A stretch of 64,000 bases of DNA from an uncultured bacterium (GCA_903937035.1 CAIZXS010000020.1:3443-67442), one strand, 5' to 3'. Counted from the stretch's first letter, positions 454-51,687 are shown. Notes: generated by a model from the letters alone, not told the origin. Numbers and translations are program-made.

Positions 454-945
454 CTATTTATTGAATTCCCCACCTTCAACTGAAACAGAAATTATATCAA
501 CTCTCTTGGTCAAATTGTCATATTCAACCTTTGCAAAATCACCAACTCGCAAATCAGATAGCTTTTTTCTTTCTATTAATCCCCCTTTCCCCATGAAAAA
601 TACCGAGGTTGCTTCAGTCGTTTTGAGAGAAACTGTCGGACTAGTACCATCTTTTATCAACTTTTTGAGCGGGCTACTATCATTCGCAATCACCAAACTA
701 TCACCCTTAATCGTGCTTATCACGCCAATCACCGCTAACTTGAGTGACTCAGAAGCATCCCTATTCTTCGTCAGATTTTCCTTTAGAAATGCACCCGTCA
801 AAGCTCCGCTCATATTTCCACGACTCCTTTTTTTTACAAAAAGCACAGCCGCCACAAAAACAGCTATGATCAATAATAGCAATAGAACTAGTTTCTTTTT
901 ATCCATACTTTTTATCTTTATTTTATATTTATCGTCTTGTCTCAA
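454..945 (-). CDS. small membrane-anchored protein of unknown function (paralogue of 12367..12798)
   Basis: N-terminal TM segment KKLVLLLLLIIAVFVAAVLFV (ATG at 945 or internal MDKKK near 906). C-terminal LRVGDFAKVEYDNLTKRVDIISV matches LKKGDLVKVTYDKTTKNVLMISV of ORF 12367..12798. The antisense ORF 422..973 was rejected. Confidence 0.55.
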   Translation of the reverse strand: MRQDDKYKIKIKSMDKKKLVLLLLLIIAVFVAAVLFVKKRSRGNMSGALTGAFLKENLTKNRDASESLKLAVIGVISTIKGDSLVIANDSSPLKKLIKDGTSPTVSLKTTEATSVFFMGKGGLIERKKLSDLRVGDFAKVEYDNLTKRVDIISVSVEGGEFNK

Positions 946-9798: not shown

Positions 9799-12147
9799 CT
9801 ACTCAATTATCTTTCCGCCCTTTCCTACCTGATCAATTTTTACAGAAAGCATCTTCGACATTCCATCTTCTCCCATTGTAACGCCATAAAGCAAGGATGC
9901 TTGACGCATTGTTTCACGATTATGCGTAATAATCACAAATTGCGTGGAATCGGAAAGTTCTTGGATAATCCGACCAAAACGCTTTGAATTTGCTTCGTCA
10001 AGCGCCGCCTCCACTTCATCAAGAATTGAAAAAGGAGGTGGATTATGAGCAATTATGGCAAAAAGTAAAGCTAGCGAAGTAAGCGAACGCTCTCCACCAG
10101 AAAGCATCGCAAGGCTCGCTATTTTTTTGCCCGCAGGACACGCTGAGATATCAATACCAATTTCGTCCTTATCATCCTCATCCTCCGTAACAGCCTCATT
10201 TTCAACTTCGCCGTCCTGCTCATTAGCTTCACCATTCTCAGTAGAATCATCCTTCGTTCTGCGCGTTTTTATCTTAACCTTAGTCAGATGAGCGTCTCCA
10301 CCACCAAAAATAATGCGAAAATATTTGGAAAACTCTCTATTAATTTCATCAAAAGTCTCGTGAAACTTCTCATTAACTTTTTTCTCCATCTCTTTGATCA
10401 CTTCCCGAAGTGAAACCAAGGCATTTTCCAGATCGGCAGATTCAGTCGTCAAAAACTGAAAGCGTTTTTCAGTTTCATCATATTCAGTCACAACCAACGG
10501 ATCTATCCCGCCGATTTGCTCCATTTGAAATTTCAACTTAGCAATATCTCTTTCTAGTGAAAATTGATCAACAACCTCCAATGTTGTAGCTAGAAGTGCT
10601 ACATCCATCTTCAATTCTTCCAAAATACGCGCTCGCAAATCTTCTTCCCGCACTTCAATCTTTGCTAACGAAATTTTAAAATCATTGTACCGATCCTTGA
10701 AAGAATTGGCCTCCTCCTGTTTTAAGCGGAGCTCGCGCTCTATCTGAAAAAATTGCTGACGTTTATTGCGATCTAGTGCAATTTCGGCTTGAATTTCTTC
10801 AACTATTTTTCGCAAATCCTGCTCAAGCACGCTGATCTCCTCACGCACACGAAGCAACCTTGCTCGAAGATCAATAATCGCCTGAGAATCGACAGGCGCC
10901 GCCACCTCGACTGGTTTTATTTCCACTTTTTTCTCTGGAGCAGGAGCATCCTTCTTACCCTTTTCAATATCCCCCTTGAGCTCAGTTAACTTTATCTGAA
11001 TTTTTCGAGCCAATTCTCGCACAACCTCAAGATCATTCAAATCCTTGGCTGCGTTCAACTTTTGCACCAATGTTTCCTGATCACGCCGAATCTCCTCCAA
11101 ATTTCCCTTAACATAACTAAGGTCTACTGGTTGACTTTGAATCTTAATTTCTTCAATAATTTGAATACTTTTTTGCTTTTCCTTTTCGAGCTCAATCCGT
11201 CCTTCCGAAATAATCAACTCACGCTCCAAGTCATTTAGACTGCTCCGCTTTTCTCTCTGCAATTTTTCCAATTCCTGCAAAGCCTCATTCGTTTTTTCTT
11301 CCTTAGAGCGTCGATTTACTTCATCCACAAGTTTATCAGCTTCCCGCTGAATATTATTCATCTTCGCTCCCAAGGCGTCTTTCTCTTCATTCAGATTAAT
11401 CTTATCAGCATTAAACTTATTCCAAAGGTAGGTATAGAGCTTCGTTTGTTTTTCTTTCAGTTCCTTAGCGACAATCTCTCCCTGTGCCGCTTTTTCTGCT
11501 TGACGCTTAAGCACCTTCAGATGCGGCCGTATCTCTTCAATAAGTTCGCCCACTCGCACTAGATTTATCTTTGTTGTTTCTAATTTTCGGAGTGATCGTT
11601 CTTTTTTGATTTGATATTGCTTCACCCCTGCCGCTTCCTCAATCACAAATCGACGTTCGAGCGGCGTCGCATTGAGCACTGAATCTGCCATACCCTGATT
11701 GATGATGGCGTGACTTTCTTTGCCCACACCAGCTTTCGCCAAAATATCCACAATATCTTGCAATCTCACTCTTGAGCCATTGACCAAGTATTCACTTTCA
11801 CCACTGCGAAAAATTTTTCGAGAAATCGCCACCTCATCAAATTCCAATGGCAATCTTTTTTCGCTATTATCGAAATATAGTGTTACGACAGCGCTGCCCA
11901 ACTTGGCCTTTTTTCCTGATCCGGCAAAAATAATATCTTCCGATTTTTTACTCCGCAAGTTTTTCATCGATTGCTCACCAATCACCCAACGCATCGCATC
12001 GGCAATATTAGATTTTCCTGAACCATTCGGCCCGACAATAGCAGTTATCCCACGAACAGCGCCCTCCACGGGAGACGACGAAAAATCCAACACTGTTTTT
12101 GTTGCGAATGATTTAAATCCATTAATTTCCAATTTTTTCAAAAACAT
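9799..12147 (-). CDS. smc: chromosome partition protein SMC (short form)
   Basis: N-terminal Walker A (IVGPNGSGKSNI), long coiled-coil region, C-terminal LSGGERSLTSLALLFA signature and Walker B (ILDEVEAALD). ATG at 12147 (MFLKKLEINGFKSF) preferred over the track start at 12183. Confidence 0.85.
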   Translation of the reverse strand: MFLKKLEINGFKSFATKTVLDFSSSPVEGAVRGITAIVGPNGSGKSNIADAMRWVIGEQSMKNLRSKKSEDIIFAGSGKKAKLGSAVVTLYFDNSEKRLPLEFDEVAISRKIFRSGESEYLVNGSRVRLQDIVDILAKAGVGKESHAIINQGMADSVLNATPLERRFVIEEAAGVKQYQIKKERSLRKLETTKINLVRVGELIEEIRPHLKVLKRQAEKAAQGEIVAKELKEKQTKLYTYLWNKFNADKINLNEEKDALGAKMNNIQREADKLVDEVNRRSKEEKTNEALQELEKLQREKRSSLNDLERELIISEGRIELEKEKQKSIQIIEEIKIQSQPVDLSYVKGNLEEIRRDQETLVQKLNAAKDLNDLEVVRELARKIQIKLTELKGDIEKGKKDAPAPEKKVEIKPVEVAAPVDSQAIIDLRARLLRVREEISVLEQDLRKIVEEIQAEIALDRNKRQQFFQIERELRLKQEEANSFKDRYNDFKISLAKIEVREEDLRARILEELKMDVALLATTLEVVDQFSLERDIAKLKFQMEQIGGIDPLVVTEYDETEKRFQFLTTESADLENALVSLREVIKEMEKKVNEKFHETFDEINREFSKYFRIIFGGGDAHLTKVKIKTRRTKDDSTENGEANEQDGEVENEAVTEDEDDKDEIGIDISACPAGKKIASLAMLSGGERSLTSLALLFAIIAHNPPPFSILDEVEAALDEANSKRFGRIIQELSDSTQFVIITHNRETMRQASLLYGVTMGEDGMSKMLSVKIDQVGKGGKIIE

Positions 12148-12207
12148 CCTGTCATGAAGTATGAAACATAAAACACGAAACAAAAAGGCTTGAGCCTAAT
12201 TCGTCCT

Positions 12208-12256
12208 ATGTTATATGCTTCATGTTATATGTTACATGTTATGCTACATGTATTTT
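12208..12256. repeat. imperfect tandem 12-14-bp repeats (ATGTTATATGYTWC x3)
   Basis: atgttatatgcttc / atgttatatgttac / atgttatgctac / atgtatttt sit 60-110 bp upstream of the smc start. Confidence 0.5.
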
Positions 12257-12304
12257 CATTCTACAACACTTTTGAAAATAAATAAACTCAAAGTCACAAT
12301 TAAA

Positions 12305-12334
12305 CAAAAACACTAGATTACTCTGGTGTTTTTG
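12305..12334. terminator. intrinsic terminator after the Cys-rich protein operon
   Basis: aacactag-attact-ctggtgtt followed by ttttt; also a hairpin on the minus strand, downstream of ORF 12367..12798. Confidence 0.5.
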
Positions 12335-12366
12335 CCCTATCTTTTATCTAAATATCAAAGTCTCGA

Positions 12367-12798
12367 CTATTTTTTCTTCTCTACTGTCTGTGCTCTTGCG
12401 ACGGAAATCATTAAAACGTTTTTGGTTGTTTTGTCATATGTCACCTTAACTAAATCACCCTTCTTTAAGTCGGCCATCTGGCCAGCAGTTGGTTGATCTG
12501 CGCCCAAGGTGATTATGACCGGCGTGGCACCATTAATATTGACTAACGTTGATTCTTGGGGGGTTTTGATGGTAAGGGTCTTCTCAGCGATAACCTCTAC
12601 GCTACCCGAAATATCCACCCTAGCATTCTCATTGACTTTCGTCGCTTCTTGACCAAACATATTGTTTTTGACAATTGTTTTTTGGTCCACTGGCTTATTT
12701 GCTACGCTCTTATCTCGAATACTTTTGGCGATAATGAAAATTCCGCCAAAAAGAACAATGAGTGCAAAGACAAGAATGATTGTTTTTTTTGTATTCAT
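12367..12798 (-). CDS. small membrane-anchored protein of unknown function (paralogue of 454..945)
   Basis: N-terminal TM segment TIILVFALIVLFGGIFIIA and the conserved C-terminal GDLVKVTYDKTTKNVLMISV block. Confidence 0.55.
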   Translation of the reverse strand: MNTKKTIILVFALIVLFGGIFIIAKSIRDKSVANKPVDQKTIVKNNMFGQEATKVNENARVDISGSVEVIAEKTLTIKTPQESTLVNINGATPVIITLGADQPTAGQMADLKKGDLVKVTYDKTTKNVLMISVARAQTVEKKK

Positions 12799-12835
12799 GT
12801 TTTTTATTTACTATAAATTAACTTAAATTATTTAT

Positions 12836-15796
12836 CTACTTTTCTTGCCATTGACCAGAACCGCAAGGACCACAATATGCGGAATCACAAGTATTTGCCG
12901 GACAGCTCGCACAGATGCGAGGTTGTGTTCCGCAAACCCCCGCCCCACACGGATCCGAACAACCTGTAGTACAAGCTCCAGGTATACAGTCTATCACACA
13001 AGAATTTCCACTCCGTTTGAATCCAGCTTTGCAAGTGTATTCACATTTTCGAGCGCTGCCCGCCGGGAAGCTACAAGAGTCAACAACCAATCCGTCCATA
13101 TTTGCCGCTAAATAATCGTCATCACCAGGGCAAAGGTCGGCATTGGCAGGCGGATTGACGCAAGTAGCAGTGTTCAAAACACAAGTTCCAGCAGCGCCAT
13201 CCCAAATATAGCCATTCGCGCAAGAATAGCATTTCTGAGTACCACAGCAAACTGAACCATCAGTTACTATTTTGACGTTATATGTAGCTTCATCTATTGC
13301 TGAAAGCGGATTAATGCACGCCCGCATATCAGCACCAATAGGCTGACAAGTTGCTGCGCAAACACTTGCCGAAGTCATGCAGGGAGTTCCTGTAACTGTC
13401 CCATTGTAGGGCGTAAGTGAACAGCTGACCGTTCCAGTATCATTCAACATAACACCAAAGTTAGTATATTCCGAAGGGACATTGAGCCCATTGACTTGTG
13501 GCGTAAGCCCTGTGCAAGACAATGTGCAACCCTTAGCTTTCGTCGTTGTCCAGCTCAGAGGGCCCCAAGTGTCCTTAGAGTACGCTGTGCTACTAAAAGA
13601 AAAGGTAGTGCAAACAGGGGTTTGTGTATAATACTCACATGCCCCAGCCGCTCCAGTGCAACCGGTGGTTGCCACATCCTTCCAAAGAGTAACGCTAGGC
13701 AATCCTGATGTTTTCGTGCTAGGACAAACTTCTTGAAATTCAATCGGATCAGGCGGAGTGCCGGTACATGAATGAGGTACTGCCGGACCAACGGTTGTTG
13801 AGGCATAGCAAGGTGCACCTATAACTGCGCCCCTGCGAGGCAAAAGAGAGCAATTCACAGATCCTTCTCTATTTAGCATCACGCCATAATCAGTATATTG
13901 TTTATCAACAGTATTGCCAGAAAACTCAGGATCAAGACCCGTGCAAGACAGCGCGCAATCATCGGCATTCGTAGTTGTCCAGGTTAGTGGCCCCCAGACA
14001 TCCTTGACGTAGCTGCTACTACCAAAAGAAAATGTATTGCAAACAGGCGCTGCCACAACTTCATATCCATAATATAGCTCACCATAAGTTTGCGCAGTAT
14101 ACATGTAAGTAGAATATTGACTACCCCTAAAAAGTGCGGCATAATGGCCAGGCACTGATTGTGCGATACCAGTAGCAGTAGCTAACTGAGTGGTAGACTG
14201 TCCTGCCATTGGAGTTGAAGCTGAGAGCATGCCATATCTAGCCGCATTTATTTCCACATCCAATCCAACATAAGCCAATGCATTAGAACAAGTCGCTGCC
14301 CACGCCGTACCAGTAGCTTTAATCGCTTCTTCTGGTTTATAGACAGAGTTATTTAGACTTACAGTAAATGTAACCCCCCCAGCCGAGTCAGTAAACGTAA
14401 GCCCCTTCACGCCACTCGAAACTGATAACCCTGAAACGACCAAGATTAAAAGAATAAACGCATTAATATTCTTTTTTTTAATAAAAATGACCGTAAAAGA
14501 GATTATCGAAAGTAAAACGATGAAAGAAATTCCATAAATCAGTAAACTATTTTTTTGATTTTCTTTTTTTTGCGCCGGATCAATTGTAGCATTCCCTGAT
14601 ACGCTCTTGCTAATAAGCTTATAATCATTTTGATCAAGAATTAAACCTTTCGCATCTTGGATTGCGACACTGATTTGGGGGTTAAGACAATCAGTGGTGA
14701 TGGGAAAATCAAAAGATGGAGTTTTTTCCTTAGAATCAAGTTCTTTTTTACCATTTGCAGTAGTGCAATTGGCGTTGTTTTTATCTTTTATGGAAATTGT
14801 TACAAATAATTTTCCGCCATCTGTTGCACCAAAACGAGAGCCAGGAAAACTATCAGCAGAGGGAGTCCAAAAGAAAGAAGCCTTAGCAGTATCACCTTTT
14901 TGATAATAATCCTTGTCTAAGCGAAGATTCTGAATTGTAGCACTAGCTCCTCGCAACACATAATGAAAGACTACTTTATTAGAAATTACATCACCTTTAG
15001 TGTTAGCTAAATTAACAACAGCGTCATAAGCTTGAGGCATGATAGCTTTGGAAAGAGTAAAACTAACTTGCTTTTTTTCTTGTGGATTTAGTGCTAAAAC
15101 TTTTTGAGGCTCTTGGTTATCTGGAACAACTCGTCCAAAAGTAGTCCGCCAATGTGTTTCAATTTTTGGAGTAGCTGTCAACGCTACGCTGGAATGATTA
15201 GTGATTTCACAAGTCGCGATTAGCTTTTCTTCATTTTTAATATCCACACCCTGCCCTAACGTATATTGCTTGCCCCCCGCTTCTCCATCAACTTTCAAAA
15301 AGCAAGATTTAGCATTAATTTCCGCGTATTGCCCATCTCCATTTAATATCACATCGCCAGGATGAACCATCGCCAACATGAGGCCATTTTGATTTCTGGC
15401 GACAATCCAAAGTTGTAGATTACCAGAAAGATAAGCAGGGGCAACGTAAGCTATCTCTTTTGGAATTGTCTCATTTTCACCGAGATTGACTGCTTCTGGA
15501 TAAATCTGTTCGTCCATGACCACCTGAATACCCTTTTCTTCCTTAACTAGCCGTACAGCATATTTAACGTCCGGCTGGATATTGGCATGATTAGAAAGAT
15601 CAAAAAATAACTTGAACTTATTTTTATCTTGGGAAACTATTTTTGCGTTATAAACATCAACCATAGCCACAGTGACCTTATTTTTTTGTGTTGGCGCCGG
15701 AATTTCAGCGGCTTGAACACTTGAAACAAAAAATGTCAATACAAAAACGACCAAGATATTAATAGTTAATTGCTGGAAAACATTTTTTTGTTTCAT
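12836..15796 (-). CDS. large bipartite cysteine-rich surface protein, unknown function (paralogue of 15927..19352)
   Basis: Signal peptide (VFVLTFFVSSVQA), ~400-aa N-terminal domain, TM segment LLIYGISFIVLLSIISFTVIFI followed by KKK, a second signal-peptide-like segment AFILLILVVSGLSVSSG, then a ~520-aa Cys-rich region with two ~90-aa internal repeats (CNTFSFGSSSYVKDVWGPLTWTTT / CTTFSFSSTAYSKDTWGPLSWTTT) and CP..W..V...C....CEY modules. Confidence 0.7.
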   Translation of the reverse strand: MKQKNVFQQLTINILVVFVLTFFVSSVQAAEIPAPTQKNKVTVAMVDVYNAKIVSQDKNKFKLFFDLSNHANIQPDVKYAVRLVKEEKGIQVVMDEQIYPEAVNLGENETIPKEIAYVAPAYLSGNLQLWIVARNQNGLMLAMVHPGDVILNGDGQYAEINAKSCFLKVDGEAGGKQYTLGQGVDIKNEEKLIATCEITNHSSVALTATPKIETHWRTTFGRVVPDNQEPQKVLALNPQEKKQVSFTLSKAIMPQAYDAVVNLANTKGDVISNKVVFHYVLRGASATIQNLRLDKDYYQKGDTAKASFFWTPSADSFPGSRFGATDGGKLFVTISIKDKNNANCTTANGKKELDSKEKTPSFDFPITTDCLNPQISVAIQDAKGLILDQNDYKLISKSVSGNATIDPAQKKENQKNSLLIYGISFIVLLSIISFTVIFIKKKNINAFILLILVVSGLSVSSGVKGLTFTDSAGGVTFTVSLNNSVYKPEEAIKATGTAWAATCSNALAYVGLDVEINAARYGMLSASTPMAGQSTTQLATATGIAQSVPGHYAALFRGSQYSTYMYTAQTYGELYYGYEVVAAPVCNTFSFGSSSYVKDVWGPLTWTTTNADDCALSCTGLDPEFSGNTVDKQYTDYGVMLNREGSVNCSLLPRRGAVIGAPCYASTTVGPAVPHSCTGTPPDPIEFQEVCPSTKTSGLPSVTLWKDVATTGCTGAAGACEYYTQTPVCTTFSFSSTAYSKDTWGPLSWTTTKAKGCTLSCTGLTPQVNGLNVPSEYTNFGVMLNDTGTVSCSLTPYNGTVTGTPCMTSASVCAATCQPIGADMRACINPLSAIDEATYNVKIVTDGSVCCGTQKCYSCANGYIWDGAAGTCVLNTATCVNPPANADLCPGDDDYLAANMDGLVVDSCSFPAGSARKCEYTCKAGFKRSGNSCVIDCIPGACTTGCSDPCGAGVCGTQPRICASCPANTCDSAYCGPCGSGQWQEK

Positions 15797-15926
15797 TTTA
15801 TTGTTTTATTTTATTTATTAATCAACGAAAGTTTTTTACATTAATATATTACAACACATTTGAAAATTTGTCATTTTTTCCAATCAAGATTTACAATTCC
15901 GCCCTCAAAAAACTAAATTTTCTCAC

Positions 15927-18900
15927 CTATTGAATCTCCCGCCATCCGCCAGAATTACAAGGGCAATAAATTGATCCCGTGCAGCTACTAGCGGTACACG
16001 GATCGGCACAGCCAGAACCAATTGGTGCTGATGATGTGCATGTTTGATATTTATTTCCACAAATTCCTGCGCTGCATGTAAGCGTAGCGGGAGAACACAG
16101 AGCGCCAGGACATGCGATATATTCGCAAGAACCACCTACATTGCAAGTACCAACTGGTCCCCAATTTTTTGCCACTGCCAATCCAGTCTCTATCGTACCT
16201 GGGCATTTGTAAAAACCTGGGGGTACCGACAACCCGCAATCAAATAATGCTGGTGGCGTATAGTACTCGCAATTTCCTCCTGAGATACAGCTAAGTGCAC
16301 TGGGTCCCACATTATGCCATGGATTAGCAACATTTGTCAGTGTGGCTGGACACATCATTGAGCCTGCAGGGATAGAGCCTGTGCAAGAAAGTGATGTTGT
16401 GCAAGTTGCATTCGTTGGATCAAGAGAATTGCGACACACACCCGTTTCATATGAATAAGGCGCAACTTCTCGTCCAAGAGAAGTGCTGTAACAAATTCCA
16501 TTGGGGATATTTCTACAGGCATAACTTTGATTATCCACATGCCAATAGTTCAAGCCACAGGGCTCATTACAGCTAGCAGCATCTTTACAAGTAGTGCTGT
16601 CCAAAACATTGCCGGTATTGCGACAATAACAAGTACTAGTTCCGTCGCAACCATCCATTCCACCATAACAATCCATAGGGTAACTGCACATAGATGTGTC
16701 AGTGCATGTGCCATTGCAAGGTTCTTTTGTTACGCAAGGGCTACATGTTGGATCACCAGTTCCATTGCAAGTCGTAATGCAACCAAAAATTGGATAACAA
16801 TCAAGACCGGCCTGACAGTCACTGTCAGTGGAACAAGCTCCGCGACAACCAGATGGTACGACTAGCGGAGTATAATACTCACACTTTCTTGGGTCCGAAC
16901 AACTCCCATATGAAGTTCCCACATATCGCCAAGGAATAACTACCGTCAATCCAGTGTCATCCCCCGGGCACATTATGGAATCAGCAGGAACAGATCCAGT
17001 ACATGCTGTCGACGGAACACAATTGCAACCATCACAAGTCGTCCCAGAAGGACAACTTCCACCACTGAAAACCAAGCTGCACGCACAGTTTTTCGTACAC
17101 ATCGTTCCATTCCAGGTATAACCAGCAGCAGTGTCACATTCATAGCAAGATGTTCCACCGCAACAAGTAGCGGAGGTCGTAATGCCATTAGTCAAAGACG
17201 CCATACAGCCAGGACCAGTGGAGCATGTGGCACTACAACAATTTTTGATCGAATAATCGATACTACCTTCGCCAATTTTGTCATAGTCCGCTGCCACATC
17301 ACTAACATAACCATGTTTAAAAGCATACGTAAATTTAGCTGAGTAATTTCCGCAAGTCCAACCACTGGTACTGAAATTATATGCACCAGCACTGATAGCG
17401 CCCTCGTTAGTGATATAGGACGAATTAATAATCCACTGCGCGGGGTTACTTCCTGTTGTTTGCACAACCATTCCCGTTGTCACGCCGTTATTGCAAATAT
17501 TGGCCCCGATTGAGAGGCCAGCAGCCTGAATGGTGGTCCCTTGATCAACAGAGCATCCGCTACTATTGCAACTGCCGCCGGAGCCATTATTCAAATTATA
17601 GGAGAACTGAACAATATCCCTATAACAACCATGAACTTTACCATCAACAGAATACCAATAAGCGTTATTATTACTAAATCTACACAGAGAGACAGACTGG
17701 TAGTCCACAGGGCACACTGGAGTGGCATCTAAGGTCGCCTGCGAAACTCCACAATTGAGCATACTAACAAACTGTGTCCCCGTCGCAGCAGATTCATCGA
17801 ATGTTTGCCAAAAAGAATCCCCCTCCAATACTGCCACCGATATCGCCCAGGACTGATTTGTCCATAAAAAAGAAGCTGCGAAAACCAAAAAGAAAATACC
17901 AGTCTTGGAAATATTTGCGATTCTCCACTTCTTCCAATGAAACCAATTCACGATTACCAATATTAAAACTAAAATTAAACCGATGATTACCACGAGAAAA
18001 TTATTTTTACCTTCCCGCTGAACAGCTGACTTAGCCTGCTCTTTTCCCGGCTCAGTCTTGATGATTTTTTCATATAAAAGCTGCCCTTCATTAATCAATT
18101 TAATGGTAACAATAGGATAGAGACAATCTTTTTCCATTGGAACAGTCAGGATGGTTTTAAATTCTCCGGTTTTCTGAGTTAATTTCCCACCACAAGAATT
18201 TCCCTTAACATCTCTAAATTCAACTTCAAAGCGAGGATCTTTTAAATAGCTTCCACCAGTCCGAGAATCACGAAAAGTGTCCGCCGATCCTGCCCATAGC
18301 AAAGCTAGCTGAGCATTCTCTCTTGCTTTATATTGATTTTTGTCGAGACTGGCATTGATAATGGTGCCGCTTTTGCCAGAAAGAACAAAGTGAGCGAAGA
18401 CTGGATTGGAAACAATTTTTCCCTCTTTCTTGAAAACAATCTTGGCATCATAGGCTTGAGGATTTTCCGGCAAACGAATAGCGAGCTTGACCAATTTTTC
18501 CTCATCCTTGTTGAAAGTAACGGCTTCGTTTTGCGATACTTCTAATTCTCCAGTTTTTCTCCCATAGAAATCTCTTTGATAGAATTCAACCGTGGGCAGA
18601 ACTGTCACGTCCTCTCCGATAAGATTTTTAATCTGACAGTTGAAAAAAAGTTTTTCTTCTTTTTTCAAATCCACTCCTTGACTCAGATTATATTTCTTGT
18701 CATTTTCTCCTTCAATTGTCAAATAGCACGAACTACTTTGCTCGATGAATTTTTTTGATCCAGCTAGATTGACATTGAACGATTGACCAGCCAAGACCAT
18801 TCCGCTTTCATCTTTAACTTTGAGCCAAAGAACAAAAACGCCATTCAAGTATTCTGGAGCTTGATAGATAATCTCTCGGCGAACTGACTTATTTTTTTCG

Positions 18901-19352
18901 ATTGTAATTTTATCTTCTGAAAAAATTTTGACATCCGCAAGGCTAGTCCCATTATTCTCTCCCTCTTTGAACAACTCCAAGCCATAAATCAAGTTGGATT
19001 GAAGTTCCATAGAATTATCCACATTGAAAACTAGCCTCAACTGATCCTTTTTTAATTCGCTTATTTCAGCATTGCTAATGTTAACATCAGCAATAATTTC
19101 GACTTTTGCCTTGGAACCATTTCCTATCTTAGTCAGATCATCAGCGGTCAGAATCTCCTCTGCGCTACCGCTCTCAACTGGCTTCGCCAACTCCTCAAAA
19201 ATAGCCTTAGTATCATCAACTGCCAAAGTAGTTTTTCCGGAGCACAATAAAATGATTACTAAAAAAACCGGGAGGACTAATTTATTTTTCATTTTGTTTT
19301 TTAAATTTAAATTAATTTTAACTACCCCAATTATTTTCAAACAATAGCACAT
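15927..19352 (-). CDS. large bipartite cysteine-rich surface protein, unknown function (paralogue of 12836..15796)
   Basis: Same architecture: signal peptide (probable start at internal MKNKLVLPVFLVIILLC), homologous N-terminal domain (YQAPEYLNGVFVLWL vs YVAPAYLSGNLQLWI; PQAYDAKIVF vs PQAYDAVVNL), TM segment FLVVIIGLILVLILVIV, second signal-like segment GIFFLVFAASFLWTNQSWA, and a ~640-aa Cys-rich region with repeated CPGDD/CP...W..VG...C.....CEY modules. Both proteins end in CPC.SG.W.E. Confidence 0.7.
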   Translation of the reverse strand: MCYCLKIIGVVKINLNLKNKMKNKLVLPVFLVIILLCSGKTTLAVDDTKAIFEELAKPVESGSAEEILTADDLTKIGNGSKAKVEIIADVNISNAEISELKKDQLRLVFNVDNSMELQSNLIYGLELFKEGENNGTSLADVKIFSEDKITIEKNKSVRREIIYQAPEYLNGVFVLWLKVKDESGMVLAGQSFNVNLAGSKKFIEQSSSCYLTIEGENDKKYNLSQGVDLKKEEKLFFNCQIKNLIGEDVTVLPTVEFYQRDFYGRKTGELEVSQNEAVTFNKDEEKLVKLAIRLPENPQAYDAKIVFKKEGKIVSNPVFAHFVLSGKSGTIINASLDKNQYKARENAQLALLWAGSADTFRDSRTGGSYLKDPRFEVEFRDVKGNSCGGKLTQKTGEFKTILTVPMEKDCLYPIVTIKLINEGQLLYEKIIKTEPGKEQAKSAVQREGKNNFLVVIIGLILVLILVIVNWFHWKKWRIANISKTGIFFLVFAASFLWTNQSWAISVAVLEGDSFWQTFDESAATGTQFVSMLNCGVSQATLDATPVCPVDYQSVSLCRFSNNNAYWYSVDGKVHGCYRDIVQFSYNLNNGSGGSCNSSGCSVDQGTTIQAAGLSIGANICNNGVTTGMVVQTTGSNPAQWIINSSYITNEGAISAGAYNFSTSGWTCGNYSAKFTYAFKHGYVSDVAADYDKIGEGSIDYSIKNCCSATCSTGPGCMASLTNGITTSATCCGGTSCYECDTAAGYTWNGTMCTKNCACSLVFSGGSCPSGTTCDGCNCVPSTACTGSVPADSIMCPGDDTGLTVVIPWRYVGTSYGSCSDPRKCEYYTPLVVPSGCRGACSTDSDCQAGLDCYPIFGCITTCNGTGDPTCSPCVTKEPCNGTCTDTSMCSYPMDCYGGMDGCDGTSTCYCRNTGNVLDSTTCKDAASCNEPCGLNYWHVDNQSYACRNIPNGICYSTSLGREVAPYSYETGVCRNSLDPTNATCTTSLSCTGSIPAGSMMCPATLTNVANPWHNVGPSALSCISGGNCEYYTPPALFDCGLSVPPGFYKCPGTIETGLAVAKNWGPVGTCNVGGSCEYIACPGALCSPATLTCSAGICGNKYQTCTSSAPIGSGCADPCTASSCTGSIYCPCNSGGWREIQ

Positions 19353-28559: not shown

Positions 28560-29646
28560 ATTCTTTAATTGACCTATTAATTTCAGCTAAAATTTTAGCA
28601 TTATCCTCTTTTGGATATTGTTCCAAATTTATCTGATACTCAGAAATTTTATCCAAAAAATCATTAATCACTCGCATGGTCATTTTTTCACAAAACACAC
28701 CATAACCCATCTTTTCTAAATAATAGGCATTAATAATTTGCTCAAAATGATTTTTGAGTGGAATCGCGAAATAGGGTTTTCCCAAATATAGTGCTTCGCT
28801 GATGAGACCAAAACCAGCGTTAGCGATAATTCCTCGGCACCGGCACAAATCATCCAAAAATCCTTCCTGGCTAGGCTTTTTGTAAACTATATTTTTTTCA
28901 CGTCCCACTCTTCCTAGACCATAGACAATAAATTGGCAATCAATCCCTTTTAAATATTCCACAGCGCCCTCAAAACCTGCTGTCAGATAAACTAGAATAT
29001 AATCCTCTGTAGTAGGTTTTAGTGCAAGAATTTCTTTTCGTAAAATTGGAGAAAACAGGAGGACTTTTTTATTAATTATCCGCTCTTTTACAAAAGTAAG
29101 GGCAAGATATTTCTTCGCATTAGGCACGAATAGCTGGACAAAGGCATTGGTCATCAAAGCCTCCTTTGCATATTTTTTCGGATATTCTATCGCCGTTCCC
29201 GAAATGAAATGTTGATTGTCAATTGAGATAAGCGGAATGCGATTAGTTCTCGCCGCCACCGCGCAAGTTGGCTCAAAATCAGTGATTATAATATTTGGTC
29301 TAAACTCCTTCACGAGCCTATCAACATCAACATAACTTCCCAATATTTCTTTCAGCTTTTTACCATTTTTGATAAATGTCTCAATATACTTAACCTGATT
29401 ATTCTCAAAACTAAACCCAAGTCCTTCAATTTCCATAACGTCAAACAACAGACTCAAGCTTTTATATCCCCGATCATATGACACTACCCTTACTTGGTGA
29501 CCAACTGAAAGCAAATAATTTATAATTTCTTTTGCTCGCATCGCGTGGCCAGTTCCCTCTCCCGCTACGCCATAAAGAATTTTAGCCATAAGTATTATTG
29601 CTTTAAAAGAAGATCGCTTGTAACAGCCAACTCCGTTCTCTTCCAA
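28540..29646 (-). CDS. GT28-family glycosyltransferase (MurG/MGDG-synthase-like)
   Basis: N-terminal GVAGEGTGHAMR glycine-rich motif and C-terminal GT-B nucleotide-binding region. The start may be the internal MAKILYG. Confidence 0.65.
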   Translation of the reverse strand: MEENGVGCYKRSSFKAIILMAKILYGVAGEGTGHAMRAKEIINYLLSVGHQVRVVSYDRGYKSLSLLFDVMEIEGLGFSFENNQVKYIETFIKNGKKLKEILGSYVDVDRLVKEFRPNIIITDFEPTCAVAARTNRIPLISIDNQHFISGTAIEYPKKYAKEALMTNAFVQLFVPNAKKYLALTFVKERIINKKVLLFSPILRKEILALKPTTEDYILVYLTAGFEGAVEYLKGIDCQFIVYGLGRVGREKNIVYKKPSQEGFLDDLCRCRGIIANAGFGLISEALYLGKPYFAIPLKNHFEQIINAYYLEKMGYGVFCEKMTMRVINDFLDKISEYQINLEQYPKEDNAKILAEINRSIKEYGTINR

Positions 29647-31319
29647 CTCTGGCGAAAACCTTCCAGATCACCAAAAAATGATTTTTTGGTTTTCTCATCC
29701 GCATCAATAAAATATATCAGATCAAAAAGCTTTTTCTGCTGCTCGTATTTTTCATCAAAATCCTCCGCAATATGATTGGAACTCAAGACCATCCGACCGG
29801 AGACTGTGCGCAATTGATAACCCATCATCGGATACGCCTTATAGAAAAGTTCGGAACATACGATAGAATTGTCTGTCAAAAAATCGAAGTCAAAATCATA
29901 AGGCTTTCCAAATTGTTCAAAAGCATAAATCAAAGCTTTCAATTTTTCTTCCTGAGAAATTTTTGGTCGAAGAACCACCGCATAATCTGCTGACATACTT
30001 TTCTCCAGGGTAAAAGAAACTACCCCTTCGCTTTCCGCCTCAAGTGTTCTTTTTTTATTATCCTTCAATTCTTCGTATAATTTCGGAAAATCTCTCTCGA
30101 TATATTCACTCATCGAAAGACCTTTCGTTAACTCCGACGGAGGGAAACTCAAATCCAAATCAGCCAGACTTCCTATGTAAATCACGGTGTGTTTCCAAAA
30201 TCCCGGCAGTCCCGCGTTACTCAGGTACCAATTCCTTCTTTGCAAAAAGACATCTCCGGGCAGAATATTGCTCTCGATTTGCTTGATTTTATCAGAATCG
30301 ATAAAAACAACATTGTCCAAAGGTATTCGCGTATCCCCAACTTTCTTCGCCACTTCTTTTTGAACAGGAAACCACCCTACAAACATATTCTTTTCGAAAT
30401 AATCGATTGCCCCATTGAAACCTATTTCCGGATTCTTACCAGTTCTTACTAGAATGTTCTTAAAATCCTTCTCAGCATATTGCTTAAGCCTAGCTAGGCC
30501 TCCCTGACTAATTTTTTGCCCATAAGCCTGCCCCGCAATTGTCTGAAGCATATTCTCTGATCGTAGCAAGTTTTTTTGAATCCTATAATAACTATTTTGA
30601 GGAATCTCATAGCTCGCAACTTCCTCATTTAATATTGTCTCGGTCAAAGGAATCGCTTCCACTTGCTTGACCAGATTCAATGAAGATGAGTAGTTAGCCA
30701 AAAATGTCGCATAAGCCAACATAAAACTGCGCTCATTAAGCTCCCGATCTGTCAGATAATTTATTTGATAAAAATAGCGATTCTCATTAGTAATATCCTC
30801 AAGGGCCAAGGAATAATTCAAATAATCTTGCCAAAGCTCCCTAGTCTTATTTTTATCTTCTAGGGTCAAAGCACTCAAGGAGTTGCTTTTAATTTGCCCC
30901 AGTAATAGCTTTTCTGTTTCGCGTAATTTTTGGATGTAATTTTCGGCGTACACTTGCTCTGAATTCATTTTTTCCGTCAAAGCGATTTTGTCTGCCTTAG
31001 CCATTTCAAAATTATCGACAGGGAAAAAACTCAAAATCATCCAAAGCGTCACAAATAATCCAAGCGAAATCACTAAAAACGGCAACCACCTCAAAAGAAC
31101 TTTCTTGTGTTCATTGTATTTTTTTGACAGAGCCATTATCAGCGCATAGATAAATATAGCCCAAGAAATTCCATACACAACAAAAGCCAGCGTTCGATGA
31201 TAGGGATAGAGCACCTTGAGCATTAAAATCGATAATGCGGTTATATTTACCACGTAACTCAAAACAATCAGCCAAGCGATTTTTTTGATGTTTACCTTTT
31301 TTTTGCTATTTTTTTTCAT
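29595..31319 (-). CDS. multi-TM membrane protein with C-terminal permuted papain-like (YiiX-like) putative hydrolase domain
   Basis: Four to five N-terminal TM segments. C-terminal GDVFLQRRNWYLSNAGLPGFWKHTVIYIG ... IVCSELFYKAYP has a His-then-Cys order. Start moved to MKKNSKKK at ~31319 because the longer track ORF (to 31481) overlaps the tRNA-Gln gene. Confidence 0.45.
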   Translation of the reverse strand: MKKNSKKKVNIKKIAWLIVLSYVVNITALSILMLKVLYPYHRTLAFVVYGISWAIFIYALIMALSKKYNEHKKVLLRWLPFLVISLGLFVTLWMILSFFPVDNFEMAKADKIALTEKMNSEQVYAENYIQKLRETEKLLLGQIKSNSLSALTLEDKNKTRELWQDYLNYSLALEDITNENRYFYQINYLTDRELNERSFMLAYATFLANYSSSLNLVKQVEAIPLTETILNEEVASYEIPQNSYYRIQKNLLRSENMLQTIAGQAYGQKISQGGLARLKQYAEKDFKNILVRTGKNPEIGFNGAIDYFEKNMFVGWFPVQKEVAKKVGDTRIPLDNVVFIDSDKIKQIESNILPGDVFLQRRNWYLSNAGLPGFWKHTVIYIGSLADLDLSFPPSELTKGLSMSEYIERDFPKLYEELKDNKKRTLEAESEGVVSFTLEKSMSADYAVVLRPKISQEEKLKALIYAFEQFGKPYDFDFDFLTDNSIVCSELFYKAYPMMGYQLRTVSGRMVLSSNHIAEDFDEKYEQQKKLFDLIYFIDADEKTKKSFFGDLEGFRQSWKRTELAVTSDLLLKQ

Positions 31320-31381
31320 AGTTACCACACTCAAACAAGATGCAAAAAACCACTCAGACAAGAAAGGCGCTATATTATTAG

Positions 31382-31452
31382 TTCGGAGATAGGGATTCGA
31401 ACCCCAATTAACAGAGTCAGAGTCTGTTGTCCTACCGTTAGACGATCTCCGA
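31382..31452 (-). tRNA. tRNA-Gln (anticodon CUG), no encoded CCA
   Basis: Reverse complement: acceptor TCGGAGA/TCTCCGA, D arm GTCT-AACGGTA-GGAC, anticodon stem ACAGA/TCTGT with loop CTCTGAC, T arm TGGGG-TTCGAAT-CCCTA, discriminator A. Confidence 0.8.
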
Positions 31453-31548
31453 ATATTCCATTTTATTACAACGCTATCCATATCCGGAAGTCTTATTTAC
31501 CTTACTTCGCTCCGCCGCAGTGCCGAGTACTCTCGGGACGAAGGAGAG

Positions 31549-45314: not shown

Positions 45315-46349
45315 TTATTCCATTTTAGTATTATCGCCAAACCATTTTACATATAATTCGTCATACTTTCCAGATTCTCGCAATTCCAATAATACTCTAT
45401 TTATGGCTTCTCGTAAAACAGTTGCGCCCTCTTTAGTTACAATCCCATAGACATGCGGATTAAAGACATCGCCCACAATTTCAAATTCCTTCATGCCAGC
45501 ATTTCTGACGAAATAGAGAAGCGATGGTGCATCAAAAACTACCGCGTCCACCAGGCCTGCTTTTAATTTCTCATAGGCTTTTTCAATACGCTTAACCGGC
45601 ACAATCTTAGCATTCAATTTTCTCAAAACCTCAACACTGATTGTTTTTTCTACTGTTGCTACGTTTTTTCCTGCCAAATCCTTATGCCCGCTAATATTGC
45701 CTTGCAATTTTGACATTGTGATAAGGGAACTAGTTTCAGCGATAAAAAAGCCAAAAATAATGTACCCGCCAAGAATCACCACTGTACTGAAAATTCTACC
45801 GATCCAAGATTGAGGAACAAAATCTCCATAACCAACCGTACTCATTGTCACAATAGCCCACCAAAATGACTCAAAAATTCCCGGAAAATAATGACTATTA
45901 AACGTTCCCGCATTCTTCTCCGCAAGCCAAATAATATTTCCAAATACTCCAATAAAAAGAGCAATGCCAAGGATAGCTTCCAATATTTTTTTATACCCAT
46001 TCTTAATCAGATTTCTAATCGTAATAAAAATATTAATATTTTTATCGCTAGAAACTAACACTAAGAGCCCTGACTCAAGCGTATTGTGGGAAAAATCAAT
46101 AATCTCTTCTCGCTCTTTATTGATGGTTATTCCAGCTAGTGCCAAATCCGCTTTTCCATCACAAACACTTTCAAGTATACTGGAAAACCCTACTTTTTTA
46201 TATTGAAAATCCAACTTTAGCCTTCGTGCAATCATGCCCCAAAGCTCGATTTCAAAACCAGAAAAATTCTTCCCTTTTTTCATCACTAAAGGTGGAATCT
46301 CGCTTACAGCAACGGTTAAAACTGCTTTCTTAGTAACACTATTTTTCAT
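45315..46349 (-). CDS. GluR0-like ligand-gated potassium channel (substrate-binding domain split by a K+ channel pore)
   Basis: SBP type-3 lobe 1 (FSGFEIELW...DLALAGITINKEREEIIDFS), M1 helix, pore TMSTVGYGDFVP with the K+ selectivity filter TVGYGD, M2 helix, then SBP lobe 2 (VDAVVFDAPSLLY). Confidence 0.8.
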   Translation of the reverse strand: MKNSVTKKAVLTVAVSEIPPLVMKKGKNFSGFEIELWGMIARRLKLDFQYKKVGFSSILESVCDGKADLALAGITINKEREEIIDFSHNTLESGLLVLVSSDKNINIFITIRNLIKNGYKKILEAILGIALFIGVFGNIIWLAEKNAGTFNSHYFPGIFESFWWAIVTMSTVGYGDFVPQSWIGRIFSTVVILGGYIIFGFFIAETSSLITMSKLQGNISGHKDLAGKNVATVEKTISVEVLRKLNAKIVPVKRIEKAYEKLKAGLVDAVVFDAPSLLYFVRNAGMKEFEIVGDVFNPHVYGIVTKEGATVLREAINRVLLELRESGKYDELYVKWFGDNTKME

Positions 46350-47149: not shown

Positions 47150-48202
47150 TTATTTACTCAGTTCTGCTTCAATTGATGATTTCAATTGTTCATAGGAAAC
47201 AGCACCCTCTTGGAATTGATCATTCACAAACACGCCTGGCGTTCCAGAAATAGCGAAACTATCTGCTTCTTTTTTATCGCTGTCAATCCTATCTTGATAT
47301 TTTTTACTATCCAAGCACTGGTTAAACTTAGCACTATCCAATTTTAAAATCCTCGCATACTCCTTAAATTTATTCACATCCTTAGTTCCACCCCAAACTG
47401 TTTGATCGGCATAAAGTTTGTCAGCGTATTCCCAGAATTTTTCTTGTTCTAAGGCGCATGCAGAGGCGAGCGCGGCACTATTGGCTTGGGGATGAATCTC
47501 AAGTGGCAAGAATTTATAATCAAAAGCAACCCTATCACCATAGTTTTTAATCGCATCCCGCATTGCTTTGTGAAAAAGCTTGCAATACGGACATTGAAAA
47601 TCAGAAAAAACTATTACCTTAACCTTGGTCTCAACTGCCCCGGCGATAGCATCACCTTCATTGATTGTAGGAGTGGCAAGATATTTTCCCACAGGAATCC
47701 CAATATCCTGCGTTCGCAGGGAAAACTGACTGTTCTTTTCATCAAAAAGAGTTTTTGCTTGTGTGTAGAAATCGGTTTTTGTCACAGGCTCTGCGAAAAT
47801 AAAAGCTGGCAATGTTTTTATTCCAAATCTCTCAATCAACTCCTTGCCGTTGTCTGATTTATAGTCGACTTTTTCAGTTGAAACAGTTGGCACAATACGA
47901 CGAAGCCAAACTAACACCTCGGAAACATCACATTTCTCACATGCATCATCATTAATTAATGAAACTGTGACAGCCGGCTCACTATAAGCCACCCATGTTT
48001 TTCCACTAGCTTCAAAAATATCAGATTTATTGAGATTTTTTTCAGAAAAACCACTCTTTCTCACAAGCTGCGCAGTATCAATAAAAAGGCTCCCTAAAAA
48101 CATTCCCAAAAGCAAGATGATAATGGAAATCAAATTTTGCGTTTTCTTTTTTTGCTCCAGAATCTCCTTTGCCTCGATTTCTTTTTGCATATCCTCTTCC
48201 AT
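47150..48202 (-). CDS. membrane-anchored DsbA-family thiol:disulfide oxidoreductase (tandem thioredoxin-like domains)
   Basis: N-terminal TM; second domain carries the CPYC active site (FSDFQCPYCKLF). Confidence 0.75.
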   Translation of the reverse strand: MEEDMQKEIEAKEILEQKKKTQNLISIIILLLGMFLGSLFIDTAQLVRKSGFSEKNLNKSDIFEASGKTWVAYSEPAVTVSLINDDACEKCDVSEVLVWLRRIVPTVSTEKVDYKSDNGKELIERFGIKTLPAFIFAEPVTKTDFYTQAKTLFDEKNSQFSLRTQDIGIPVGKYLATPTINEGDAIAGAVETKVKVIVFSDFQCPYCKLFHKAMRDAIKNYGDRVAFDYKFLPLEIHPQANSAALASACALEQEKFWEYADKLYADQTVWGGTKDVNKFKEYARILKLDSAKFNQCLDSKKYQDRIDSDKKEADSFAISGTPGVFVNDQFQEGAVSYEQLKSSIEAELSK

Positions 48203-48878: not shown

Positions 48879-50132
48879 CTAATCCTTGCGTAAAGCCTCC
48901 ATCGGACTTAAACGCGAAGCCGTGCGGGCAGGATAATAGCCAAAAATTACGCCTGTGGCGACAGAAAAACTAACTGCGAGACTAATCGCATTAGCACTAA
49001 GATTAAAATTAATAGGAAAACCAAAAGAAGCAGATGCATAGGAAAGAACCAGGAGCAAAAAATAACCCAAAATAATTCCGACCATTCCGCCAAAAAAAGT
49101 GATGAAAATTGCTTCCCAAAGAAACTGGCGTAAGATATTTTTCGACTTAGCCCCAACAGCTTTTCGCAAGCCAATCTCAAATGTCCGCTCCGCCACAGCC
49201 ACATACATCACATTCATAATTCCCACTCCACCTACAATCAAAGAAATTGAAGTAAGCGCCAAAAGCAAAATATTGATCGTTTTGAAAACTTTTTCAATCG
49301 TCGCTTGCGCTTCCTTGATCGAGGTCACGCCAAAATCATCTTTGTTGGGATCGGTGATTTTATGTAAACGGCGCATCTCTGCGGTGAGCTCAGCTGAGGT
49401 CACATCGATCAATTTTTCATTGCTCACCTTGACCATAATAAAACGGATGTAGTTGATGCCGAGAATCTTTTTTTGCATCGTCTGGACTGGGATATAGATG
49501 AGATCATCATAGTTAAAACCAGCCACCGCTCCCCGCTCACCAGCCAGTCCGACCACTTTGTAGTTTTGATTATTGATGCGAATGTTTTTTCCTAACGGAT
49601 TATCGTCACCAAAAAAAGCCTCTCGGATATTGCTACCGATAACCGCCACTTGCGCCAGACTTTCATCATCACTCTGTGAAAAAAATGCACCTTCGGTCAA
49701 TTTAGTGTTTTGATCAATTTGATTATATTGCGCGCCAACACCAAACAAAAAAACTCGCTTATTAGTATTTTGATAGCTCGCCAGTTCTTGTGTCATTGTT
49801 CCTGAAGCATAGGCTGCGATATTAGGCACTTTGCTGATTTCTTTCGCGTCGTCAATCGTCATGGTTGTGATTTGAATGCCCGACGCCTGACCAACGGCAT
49901 TTTGGGTTGAGGCTTTGCCGGTAGCGGGCACTTTTACTTCAATCTGAATCAGATCTGTGCCAAAAGCACCCACTTGACTCAAGATAAATCCCTTAACCCC
50001 CTGCCCGAGAGAACTAACTAGAATAACAGCAATCACTCCAATCACAACCCCGACCAAAGTCAAAATTGTTCGTCCCATATTAGAGCGAAGATTTTTAAAA
50101 GCTAATTTAATTGAGACTACTAGCTCATGCAT
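48879..50132 (-). CDS. ABC transporter permease (MacB/FtsX family)
   Basis: MacB_PCD-like periplasmic domain between TM1 and a C-terminal FtsX triple-TM bundle. Confidence 0.8.
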   Translation of the reverse strand: MHELVVSIKLAFKNLRSNMGRTILTLVGVVIGVIAVILVSSLGQGVKGFILSQVGAFGTDLIQIEVKVPATGKASTQNAVGQASGIQITTMTIDDAKEISKVPNIAAYASGTMTQELASYQNTNKRVFLFGVGAQYNQIDQNTKLTEGAFFSQSDDESLAQVAVIGSNIREAFFGDDNPLGKNIRINNQNYKVVGLAGERGAVAGFNYDDLIYIPVQTMQKKILGINYIRFIMVKVSNEKLIDVTSAELTAEMRRLHKITDPNKDDFGVTSIKEAQATIEKVFKTINILLLALTSISLIVGGVGIMNVMYVAVAERTFEIGLRKAVGAKSKNILRQFLWEAIFITFFGGMVGIILGYFLLLVLSYASASFGFPINFNLSANAISLAVSFSVATGVIFGYYPARTASRLSPMEALRKD

Positions 50133-50313
50133 GTTCTATAATATAAAAACCAATTAAAAATGATGCACCCCTTAATTTCAAAATCCTAATGCCAAATTTC
50201 CAATCAACCTCAAAATTCAAAGCTCAAAATATTTTTTGACATTTGGATTTTTAATTTTGTTTGACATTGGAAATTTGAGCTTTGAAATTATCTTGGATTT
50301 GGATTTAGCAATT
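50133..50313. repeat. long AT-rich imperfect palindrome, copy B
   Basis: ttaatttcaaaatcctaatgccaaatttccaa...aaattcaaagctcaaaat // ttgtttgacattggaaatttgagctttgaaatt. Shares 17-25-nt blocks with copy C. Confidence 0.55.
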
Positions 50314-51555: not shown

Positions 51556-51687
51556 AAATCAAAATGGAAAAATCAAAAATCAAAATGACAAAGCAAAATT
51601 AAAAATGAGTTTTAGCAATTTTGTATTTTACATTGTCATTTTCCCTACCTACCGGCAGGCAGACATTTTGAGCTTTGATTTTTCCAT
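51556..51687. repeat. AT-rich palindrome, copy D, plus degenerate GC hairpin
   Basis: caaaatgacaaagcaaaatt ... attttgtattttacattgtcatttt, followed by cctacctaccggcaggcag (related to the inner hairpin of element copy 1). Confidence 0.45.

Follow-up and report, generated by a model that had tools for sequence, protein, structure and literature searches.

A large part of bacterial diversity belongs to the Patescibacteria, also known as the Candidate Phyla Radiation (CPR). These bacteria live attached to other cells, but the proteins mediating this attachment are, to our knowledge, largely unknown. The closest described ways of displaying proteins come mostly from elsewhere. In C. difficile, the SlpA precursor gives rise to two subunits that stay together on the monoderm surface, one conserved and anchoring, the other exposed and hypervariable. 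In the glycoprotein polyproteins of bunyaviruses (Gn/Gc), alphaviruses (p62-6K-E1) and flaviviruses (prM-E), a stop-transfer segment, a cytoplasmic loop and an internal signal peptide cut by signal peptidase result in two ectodomains. Within the CPR, Pam pili consist of CPR-specific secreted immunoglobulin (Ig)-like pilins of 38-55 kDa with paired cysteines, which were found by structure, polymerise by donor-strand exchange, occur mainly in Saccharimonadia and Microgenomatia and are proposed to reach the host (bioRxiv 10.64898/2026.03.03.709456). Here we analysed a locus encoding two large cysteine-rich surface proteins, P1 and P2, and a small anchored protein, P3, in a 64,000-nt stretch of DNA of an uncultured bacterium (GCA_903937035.1 CAIZXS010000020.1:3443-67442; hereafter the window, with positions counted from its first letter). 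We propose that P1 and P2 are Sec polyproteins cut by signal peptidase I into an anchored base and a displayed adhesin-like cargo serving attachment. For this reading as a whole we estimate a probability of roughly 0.55; the surface location and the architecture of the family are, taken by themselves, very likely.

The open reading frames (ORFs) of P1 (15927..19352, 1141 aa) and P2 (12836..15796, 986 aa) lie on the minus strand, as do all their parts given below. P1 probably starts at the ATG at 19292 (M21), because its homologues begin at the equivalent position, which leaves 1121 aa. A protein identical to P2 is present in ENA (P0018). BLASTP aligned the two proteins with 29% identity over 479 aa (E=1e-56), spanning the N-terminal ~400 aa and the pair of hydrophobic segments, and also gave a weak match between their extreme C-termini (E=1e-5). 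The original prediction, made from the window sequence alone, had described two paralogous proteins with a two-part layout, two hydrophobic segments and a conserved C-terminus, and these results, together with hydrophobicity and a family tail motif present in both proteins, agree with it. Hydrophobicity places the strong transmembrane helix at about aa 450 in P1 and 417 in P2, between the N-terminal signal peptide and a K-rich loop, and the second hydrophobic segment behind the loop has the very sequences quoted in that prediction. A length of about 1000 aa makes the proteins large, but not giant as they had been called.

Word-indexed searches recovered 17 relatives for P1 and 85 for P2. A family profile built from 88 aligned members was then searched against 1.84 billion representatives of 50% identity clusters, of which 2796 matched at E<=1e-3 and 1446 at E<=1e-30; the best 150 matches are mostly 650-1500 aa long and align from the N-terminus to profile position ~800. 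Named homologues and related genome records belong nearly all to Patescibacteria/CPR and the closest ones are metagenome-assembled genomes of Candidatus Moraniibacteriota, the lineage to which the genome studied here also belongs. The P1/P2 family is very large, Patescibacteria-specific, unnamed and often multicopy. Scans of P1, P2 and P3 against Pfam and NCBIfam returned best E values of 0.06 or worse, far under the cut-offs, and the conserved half of most homologues has no precomputed Pfam domain. Sequence searches of PDB with the family profile and both Cys-rich halves gave nothing meaningful, and no relatives were found among the viral contigs of IMG/VR. The absence of a recognisable named domain family and the restriction to one lineage, both anticipated earlier, were thus borne out. 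Literature searches returned no paper describing the family or its tail, or reporting internal signal peptides in Patescibacteria. Related loci were located with a 17-sequence subset of the alignment, and gene neighbourhoods were compared in 54 loci; individual loci are referred to by number (L001 and so on).

Residue-level inspection of ~100 homologues showed the same succession in each: a signal peptide, the ~400-aa domain, a first transmembrane helix (TM1), a short basic loop and then the second hydrophobic segment. The sole exceptions to this fused layout are sequences truncated by a contig end. In P1, the N-terminal signal peptide MKNKLVLPVFLVIILLCSGKTTLA/VDD (19221..19292, read from the sequence; a slash marks a predicted cut) is followed by the N-half ectodomain (18003..19220), which comprises three tandem beta-sandwich domains with 4 conserved Cys according to family conservation and AlphaFold2 (predicted local distance difference test, pLDDT, about 85-97). 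Next come the TM1 stop-transfer helix NFLVVIIGLILVLILVIVNWFHW (17934..18002, from hydrophobicity and AlphaFold2) and the basic loop with the putative internal signal peptide KKWRIANISKTGIFFLVFAASFLWTNQSWA/ISVAV (17844..17933, from alignment columns). P2 follows the same order: N-terminal signal peptide ..FFVSSVQA/AEIP (15710..15796, from hydrophobicity and sequence), N-half ectodomain of three beta-sandwiches (14549..15709, supported by invariant columns and pLDDT above 90), TM1 stop-transfer helix ..LLIYGISFIVLLSIISFTVIFI (14480..14548, from hydrophobicity and AlphaFold2) and KKK loop with the putative internal signal peptide KKKNINAFILLILVVSGLSVSSGVKG/LTF (14402..14479, from the -3 and -1 columns).

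The conserved ectodomain of the N-half measures about 370-400 aa across the family and its invariant residues, in P2 numbering, are G125, C165, C196, Q255, Y257, G283, C344 and C370, the cysteines forming the conserved pairs C165/C196 and C344/C370. Conserved motifs include QGVDI, PQAYDA, FHYVLRGxSATIQN, LDKDxYxKGE and SADxFxGSR. With family alignments, AlphaFold2 predicted three tandem beta-sandwiches (pLDDT >90), a helix-loop-helix hairpin and a confident beta-sandwich straight after it. Foldseek searches returned only generic beta-sandwich matches of the Ig, fibronectin type III and macroglobulin (MG) kinds and no enzyme fold.

In its C-half, P1 continues with a first cargo domain of about 205 aa, mostly beta (17226..17843, pLDDT 80-93), which is conserved in the P1 subfamily (the seven nearest P1 homologues included in the comparison are 32-43% identical to it, P0012 28%). 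The Cys-rich variable region behind it (15981..17225, pLDDT 30-40) carries three CP..W..VG..C..CEY modules, ending at residues 807, 1011 and 1059 of the model (residue 1 = K20 of the ORF), and the protein closes with the family tail motif, ...CPCNSGGWREIQ-COOH (15930..15980, from the sequence). The first cargo domain of P2 is a beta-sandwich (aa 466-582, 14051..14401, pLDDT about 90) and the fastest-evolving part of the protein. Behind it, alignment identified internal repeat 1 (aa 584-670, 13787..14047) and internal repeat 2 (aa 727-813, 13358..13618), which score 287 against each other compared to 37+-6 for shuffles; the tail is ...CGPCGSGQWQEK-COOH (12839..12886, from the sequence). AlphaFold2 did not provide a usable model for the Cys-rich regions (pLDDT 30-50). 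The predicted CEY modules are present, three in P1 and one clear plus one degenerate in P2. The two internal repeats of ~90 aa, which had been assigned to the first of the two proteins, do exist at ~86 aa, but in P2. The cysteine counts fall short of the 60-100 expected per Cys-rich half: P1 has 74 cysteines in total, 4 in the N-half and 67 in the mature C-half, and P2 has 43, 4 in the N-half and 39 in the C-half.

The segment on which our interpretation turns is the second hydrophobic one. In the 88-sequence alignment, the -1 column (aligned with P2 G465) contains A in 77 sequences, G in 8, S in 2 and T in 1, i.e. a small residue in 88/88, and the -3 column contains A in 61, V in 14, T in 5, S in 4 and G in 2, i.e. 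one of these five residues in 86/88. Upstream of the site are K/R columns (P2 440-443) and a hydrophobic core of ~14 columns (447-460) with a Gly/Ser column, a helix breaker, at 456. The small residues lie 4-6 residues past this core, and the c-region before the site is polar and often charged (..GRAQA/A, ..EQTRA/W, ..DAKA/D). The loop between TM1 and the second segment has 4-10 residues and is Lys/Arg-rich, with a median of 4 K/R and 0 D/E. By these sequence criteria, the second segment is built like a signal peptidase I substrate, with n-, h- and c-regions, and cuts are predicted after residue 465 in P2 (..SSGVKG/LTF) and after ORF residue 503 (A503) in P1 (..NQSWA/ISV). Most likely, therefore, it acts as an internal signal peptide and is cleaved, rather than staying in place as the permanent arm of a hairpin, and we regard cleavage at this site, judged on its own, as rather probable.

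This view is supported independently by distant relatives, in which the same boundary separates genes. At 4078..9891 of L008, two tandem pairs of N-half and C-half genes lie just upstream of the fused family member P0038. The first genes of the pairs (476 and 471 aa) encode a signal peptide, an N-half homologue and a single transmembrane helix, and then end in KKK or KKRR-COOH; the N-half homologue matches the family profile with an hhalign probability of 96.4% (E=1.2e-9 over 273 columns). The second genes (454 and 452 aa) have their own N-terminal signal peptide and the tails ..LEEARP or ..FKEIAP. Thus, the fused protein equals a type-I anchored protein plus a secreted protein. N-half-only genes were also found in L050 and L052.

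Another recurrent feature is the C-terminal tail. The pattern [WFY]-x-E occurs within the last 10 residues of 128 of the 197 family proteins (65%), compared to 3% of internal 10-mers, and further cases are added by variants in which I, L or V replaces the aromatic residue. The consensus reads (N/G)-W-[KRQ]-E-V-[ATS]-P-COOH. The spacing to the C-terminus is fixed: exactly three residues follow the Glu in 73 proteins and exactly one in 31 (..E-F or ..E-K); P1 ends in ..GGWREIQ and P2 in ..GQWQEK. The proteins stop 1-6 residues after W-x-E and show no LPXTG-like motif, C-terminal transmembrane helix or basic tail.

The tail is not confined to the family. In the fetched loci, 9 of 691 non-family ORFs carry it, and eight of the nine lie at most two genes from a family gene. 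Six of these eight are separate proteins with an N-terminal hydrophobic segment; the other two probably represent the C-half of a family gene that is broken in L026 and interrupted by a gap in L039. L004 contains an example of a separate protein. There, four genes (13959..17774) follow the P1 orthologue P0003, which sits after YceG. The first encodes a 602-aa protein with 74 Cys, its own signal anchor and the tail CGPCNSGTWKEVAP, the second a P3 homologue with 44.5% identity and the third a signal peptidase I (Peptidase_S26), while the product of the fourth is again Cys-rich and secreted. Since both fusion and neighbourhood link the tail to the N-half, we propose the base as the receptor of the tail. 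That the cargo is held on the base in this way is a tentative suggestion.

The content of the C-half varies strongly between members. Pfam domains detected there in other members include TSP1, PKD, Flg_new_2, CARDB, Y_Y_Y, F5/8C and Kelch. The Cys-rich modules are one interchangeable cargo among many, and the family is defined by the N-half, the hairpin and the tail. Variation is visible also between close relatives. In L007 (GCA_049297495.1), the gene order is CorA, P2 orthologue (74% identity), P3 orthologue (83%) and SMC, with no P1. The CorA-P2 spacer retains a scar (about 9843-9870) in which the final ~35 nt of the P1 frame (..CNSCGWREIQQ) are still present, together with the complete intergenic region between P1 and P2 and its promoter-like element ATGACA-17-TAATAT; compared with 15930..15965 and 15797..15926 of the window, the retained sequence is 83% identical overall. 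From this remnant and the kept intergenic region, it follows that P1 was deleted there and that P2 has its own promoter. Comparison of P2 with its orthologue gave 77% identity and a ratio of nonsynonymous to synonymous substitution rates (dN/dS) of 0.17 in the N-half, 45% and 0.43 in the first cargo domain (aa 466-582) and 82% and 0.12 in the Cys-rich part; these ratios are approximate as dS is near saturation. Presence/absence variation combined with a local hotspot of change would be expected of exposed recognition proteins.

Taken together, we envisage the following pathway. The Sec machinery would export the N-half until TM1 stops the transfer, the internal signal peptide would restart export, now of the C-half, and signal peptidase I would cut after A-x-A. 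The products would be a membrane-anchored base and a free cargo, which may be kept on the cell surface through binding of its tail or of its first cargo domain to the base and may bind host cells or substrates, with disulfides introduced by a DsbA-like system stabilising it. A broader version is possible, though speculative: the base may hold its own cargo as well as separately encoded secreted proteins by means of a docking tag, W-x-E-V-x-P-COOH, in an anchor-and-cargo display operating across the phylum. If true, this would give tiny symbionts a shared platform on which host-binding modules can be exchanged.

Several observations speak against this pathway. The second segment has a median of 20 uncharged residues, near the median of 22 for TM1, so it could span the membrane and stay there, and AlphaFold2 draws both hydrophobic segments as a helical hairpin. 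No signal peptidase I homologue is encoded in the 64-kb window, which contains no sortase or pilus ATPase homologue either. Between 25 and 35% of the members have no tail, so the tail cannot be the sole means of retention, and AlphaFold2 gives the tail a pLDDT of about 40-55, with local strand pairing and no confident docking. All-against-all clustering of neighbours in the 54 loci revealed no conserved partner beyond P3-like genes and offers no functional pointer. The role in attachment is plausible and is suggested by the domain types and the pattern of evolution.

The length of the second segment and the modelled hairpin are equally strengths of the best surviving alternative, in which the second segment remains in the membrane as an uncleaved arm of a helical hairpin, a single chain displays both ectodomains and the small residues serve helix packing or another role. 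It would also account for retention of the cargo without any docking, in tail-less members too. However, small residues at -1 and -3 behind a polar c-region are the signature of signal peptidase I and not of the end of a transmembrane helix, and in the split homologues this position is taken by an ordinary N-terminal signal peptide. We therefore consider the uncleaved hairpin unlikely, albeit the most serious competitor. The original prediction had adopted this hairpin; its placement of both large domains outside the cell stands on topological grounds, but the second helix is most likely lost by cleavage.

Less probable is a two-component surface layer (S-layer), with the N-half as a membrane stalk and the C-half as an outer lattice, in the manner of SlaB/SlaA or of SlpA of C. 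difficile. Arrays of beta-sandwiches on a membrane-anchored base and the anchor-plus-canopy gene pairs of L008 would suit such a layer, and Luef and colleagues reportedly saw, in 2015, a surface layer on CPR cells by cryo-electron microscopy. On the other hand, there are several divergent paralogues per genome (P1 and P2 here, at least three on the contig of L008), a close relative does without P1 and the domain content of the C-half is wholly different between members, none of which is typical of a single abundant lattice protein.

We also considered that the C-half is shed as a soluble binding protein or effector, with the N-half having a separate function. If cleaved, the C-half would indeed lack a covalent anchor (LPXTG or C-terminal transmembrane helix), and tail-less members exist. 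Nevertheless, TSP1, PKD, CARDB, Kelch and F5/8C are domains typical of adhesins, not of toxins, and the fusion is kept across the examined homologues while tail genes cluster by family genes, which points to a lasting functional link. Release of the cargo thus appears improbable, slightly more so than the S-layer.

A function as an accessory of type IV pili or the competence machinery was suggested by L001, where the tandem pair P0007 and P0012 has a ComFC-like gene on one side and, on the other, a row of genes made up of pilM, two small unnamed ones, pilB, one for a response regulator, pilT and pilC. This adjacency was seen in a single metagenomic population (L001 and the short contigs L002 and L003, which carry the same gene), the clustering of the 54 loci recovered no conserved partner of this kind, the window has no pilus genes, and neither hydrophobic segment contains the class III (prepilin) signal motif (G/FTLxE), which makes this explanation very unlikely. 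Finally, joining of two genes by a frameshift or in a chimeric contig, which one chimeric-looking database protein (P0021) and the true split pairs of distant relatives could bring to mind, was rejected as practically impossible, as both frames are intact, P0018 (= P2) and a 1141-aa protein at the P1 position are found on independent contigs, and the fused layout holds in all ~100 checked homologues not truncated by a contig end, against a background of 2796 profile relatives.

As for P0021 itself (598 aa), residues 1-406 of P2 are joined in it, at 100% identity, to a HipA_C fragment, and its contig (14.5 kb, ENA/JGI/NCBI) also encodes the 1141-aa protein at the P1 position. P0021 is probably an assembly chimera with the junction just past the N-domain.

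P3 (12367..12798, minus strand) is a 143-aa protein with an N-terminal transmembrane anchor and a small beta-rich ectodomain. It has about 20 homologues, all of 134-147 aa, and the named ones all come from Moraniibacteriota. A P3-like gene lies directly 3' of a family gene in the window and in L004, L007, L054 and L055, but not in L056. In L032 and L033, family genes are followed by small proteins resembling P3 in having a transmembrane segment plus a beta-rich part. We regard P3 as a small membrane partner specific to the lineage, which recurs downstream of family genes in Moraniibacteriota. The ORF at 454..945, proposed earlier to be its paralogue, does show similarity, but this is limited to a common stretch of 28 aa at the C-terminus (E=1e-6), and the neighbour of that ORF, described as a BNR repeat protein, scores under the Pfam thresholds.

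The three genes share the minus strand and are flanked by the pair CorA/CysS, transcribed divergently, on one side and by a short SMC gene on the other. The gap between P1 and P2 is 130 nt and P3 follows 37 nt downstream of P2. The promoter-like element ATGACA-17-TAATAT lies in the P1-P2 gap at 15846..15874 (minus strand) and, since it is kept in L007, the relative without P1, P2 and P3 are transcribable on their own. What had been announced as an operon of three is thus a co-oriented cluster and not necessarily a single operon: P2 and P3 form a conserved pair, and P1 is present or absent in close relatives. The shared terminator expected at ~12310 corresponds to a terminator-like hairpin with a 13-bp stem after P3 (12305..12334), whose strand we left unassigned; the scan flagged it on the plus strand only, and a T-rich stretch after the same stem on the minus strand, that of the genes, was read by eye.

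The DsbA/Thioredoxin_4-like oxidoreductase, also foreseen at 47150, is encoded at 47150..48202 (minus strand) and provides the context for disulfide formation outside the cell. An MdbA-like family of thiol-disulfide oxidoreductases is reported to be enriched in CPR (preprint 10.1101/335083). The proteins were also considered as targets of a diversity-generating retroelement (DGR), but we discarded this idea since a DGR-type reverse transcriptase is missing among the scanned window ORFs of >=120 aa, where a search for a template/variable repeat pair was not included; the sole match related to reverse transcriptases in these ORFs is an RNase H/RVT_3-like 143-aa protein at 54280..54711.

A few family loci carry labels from outside the CPR. 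L033 (OY762209.1, a 5.5-Mb record labelled Syntrophorhabdaceae) encodes at 9845..13340 a family member of 1013 aa with the tail ..NWKEVAP and a P3-like gene, adjoining a 3245-aa ORF, and a few other family loci are labelled Bdellovibrionales or Micavibrio. Such labels could reflect mislabelling, chimeras or horizontal transfer.

The remaining part of the window consists of ordinary CPR housekeeping genes (FtsA/Z, DnaB, RecR, enolase, PFOR and others), and we made several additional observations there. A tRNA-Gln gene (31381..31452) overlaps the 5' end of a 628-aa ORF (29595..31481) with a C92 amidase domain (aa 408-575), therefore the true start of this ORF must be further downstream. A 344-aa protein (45315..46349) combines SBP_bac_3 and Ion_trans_2, which is the layout of a GluR0-like ligand-gated channel, here in a CPR genome. 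Two MacB-type permeases (MacB_PCD + FtsX) are encoded at 48879..54111 together with an ABC ATPase and an HlyD-like adaptor. This cluster is a tripartite-style efflux set, although the organism is thought to have no outer membrane. The GC skew is below zero in all 2-kb bins of the window (cumulative -5.96) and ORFs of >=120 aa are mostly on the minus strand, which is consistent with one replichore with a strong gene-strand bias.

With respect to significance, the family pairs a highly conserved base with interchangeable adhesin-like modules and has so far been unannotated. If the internal signal peptide is cleaved, it would be, as far as we know, a rare and at the same time widespread case of a bacterial Sec polyprotein. 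The tail, if it acts as proposed, would represent a new sorting or docking tag usable for predicting the surface proteome of uncultivated CPR. The analysis also supplies several handles, namely the predicted cleavage site, the expected neo-N-termini (LTFTDSAGG... in P2 and ISVAVLEGD... in P1), the tail motif and the hypervariable first cargo domain, which can be applied in metaproteomics, in cultivated Patescibacteria and in studies of host range.

Among the known systems, the best Foldseek matches are MG-domain arrays of complement C3 and bacterial alpha-2-macroglobulin, which are likewise strings of beta-sandwiches. However, the likeness extends to the domain class only, with TM-scores of 0.09-0.2 and 7-11% identity, no thioester or bait region and no sequence match. 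The Pam pilins have no transmembrane hairpin, unlike the P1/P2 family, and are different proteins. Sortase-anchored adhesins of the MSCRAMM type similarly expose a variable binding region on a stalk of Ig-like or beta-sandwich domains, but P1 and P2 are anchored by an internal transmembrane helix, they have no LPXTG, C-terminal transmembrane helix or basic tail, and it is the W-x-E tail that ends the protein. SlaB and SlaA of Sulfolobales are encoded by adjacent genes, as are the pairs in L008, and build an anchored beta-sandwich stalk with a separately exported outer protein; they are archaeal, no homology was detected, and the family described here is usually fused and multicopy, with interchangeable cargo. 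Like SlpA, P1 and P2 would start as one secreted precursor and yield a conserved anchor subunit and a hypervariable exposed subunit. SlpA differs in being cut by Cwp84, in being anchored to a wall polymer by CWB2 repeats and in its reversed domain order, and has no sequence or specific fold relation to the family. Although they are made in the eukaryotic ER, cut by the signal peptidase of the host and unrelated in sequence, the viral glycoprotein polyproteins follow the same logic as the one we propose for this family.

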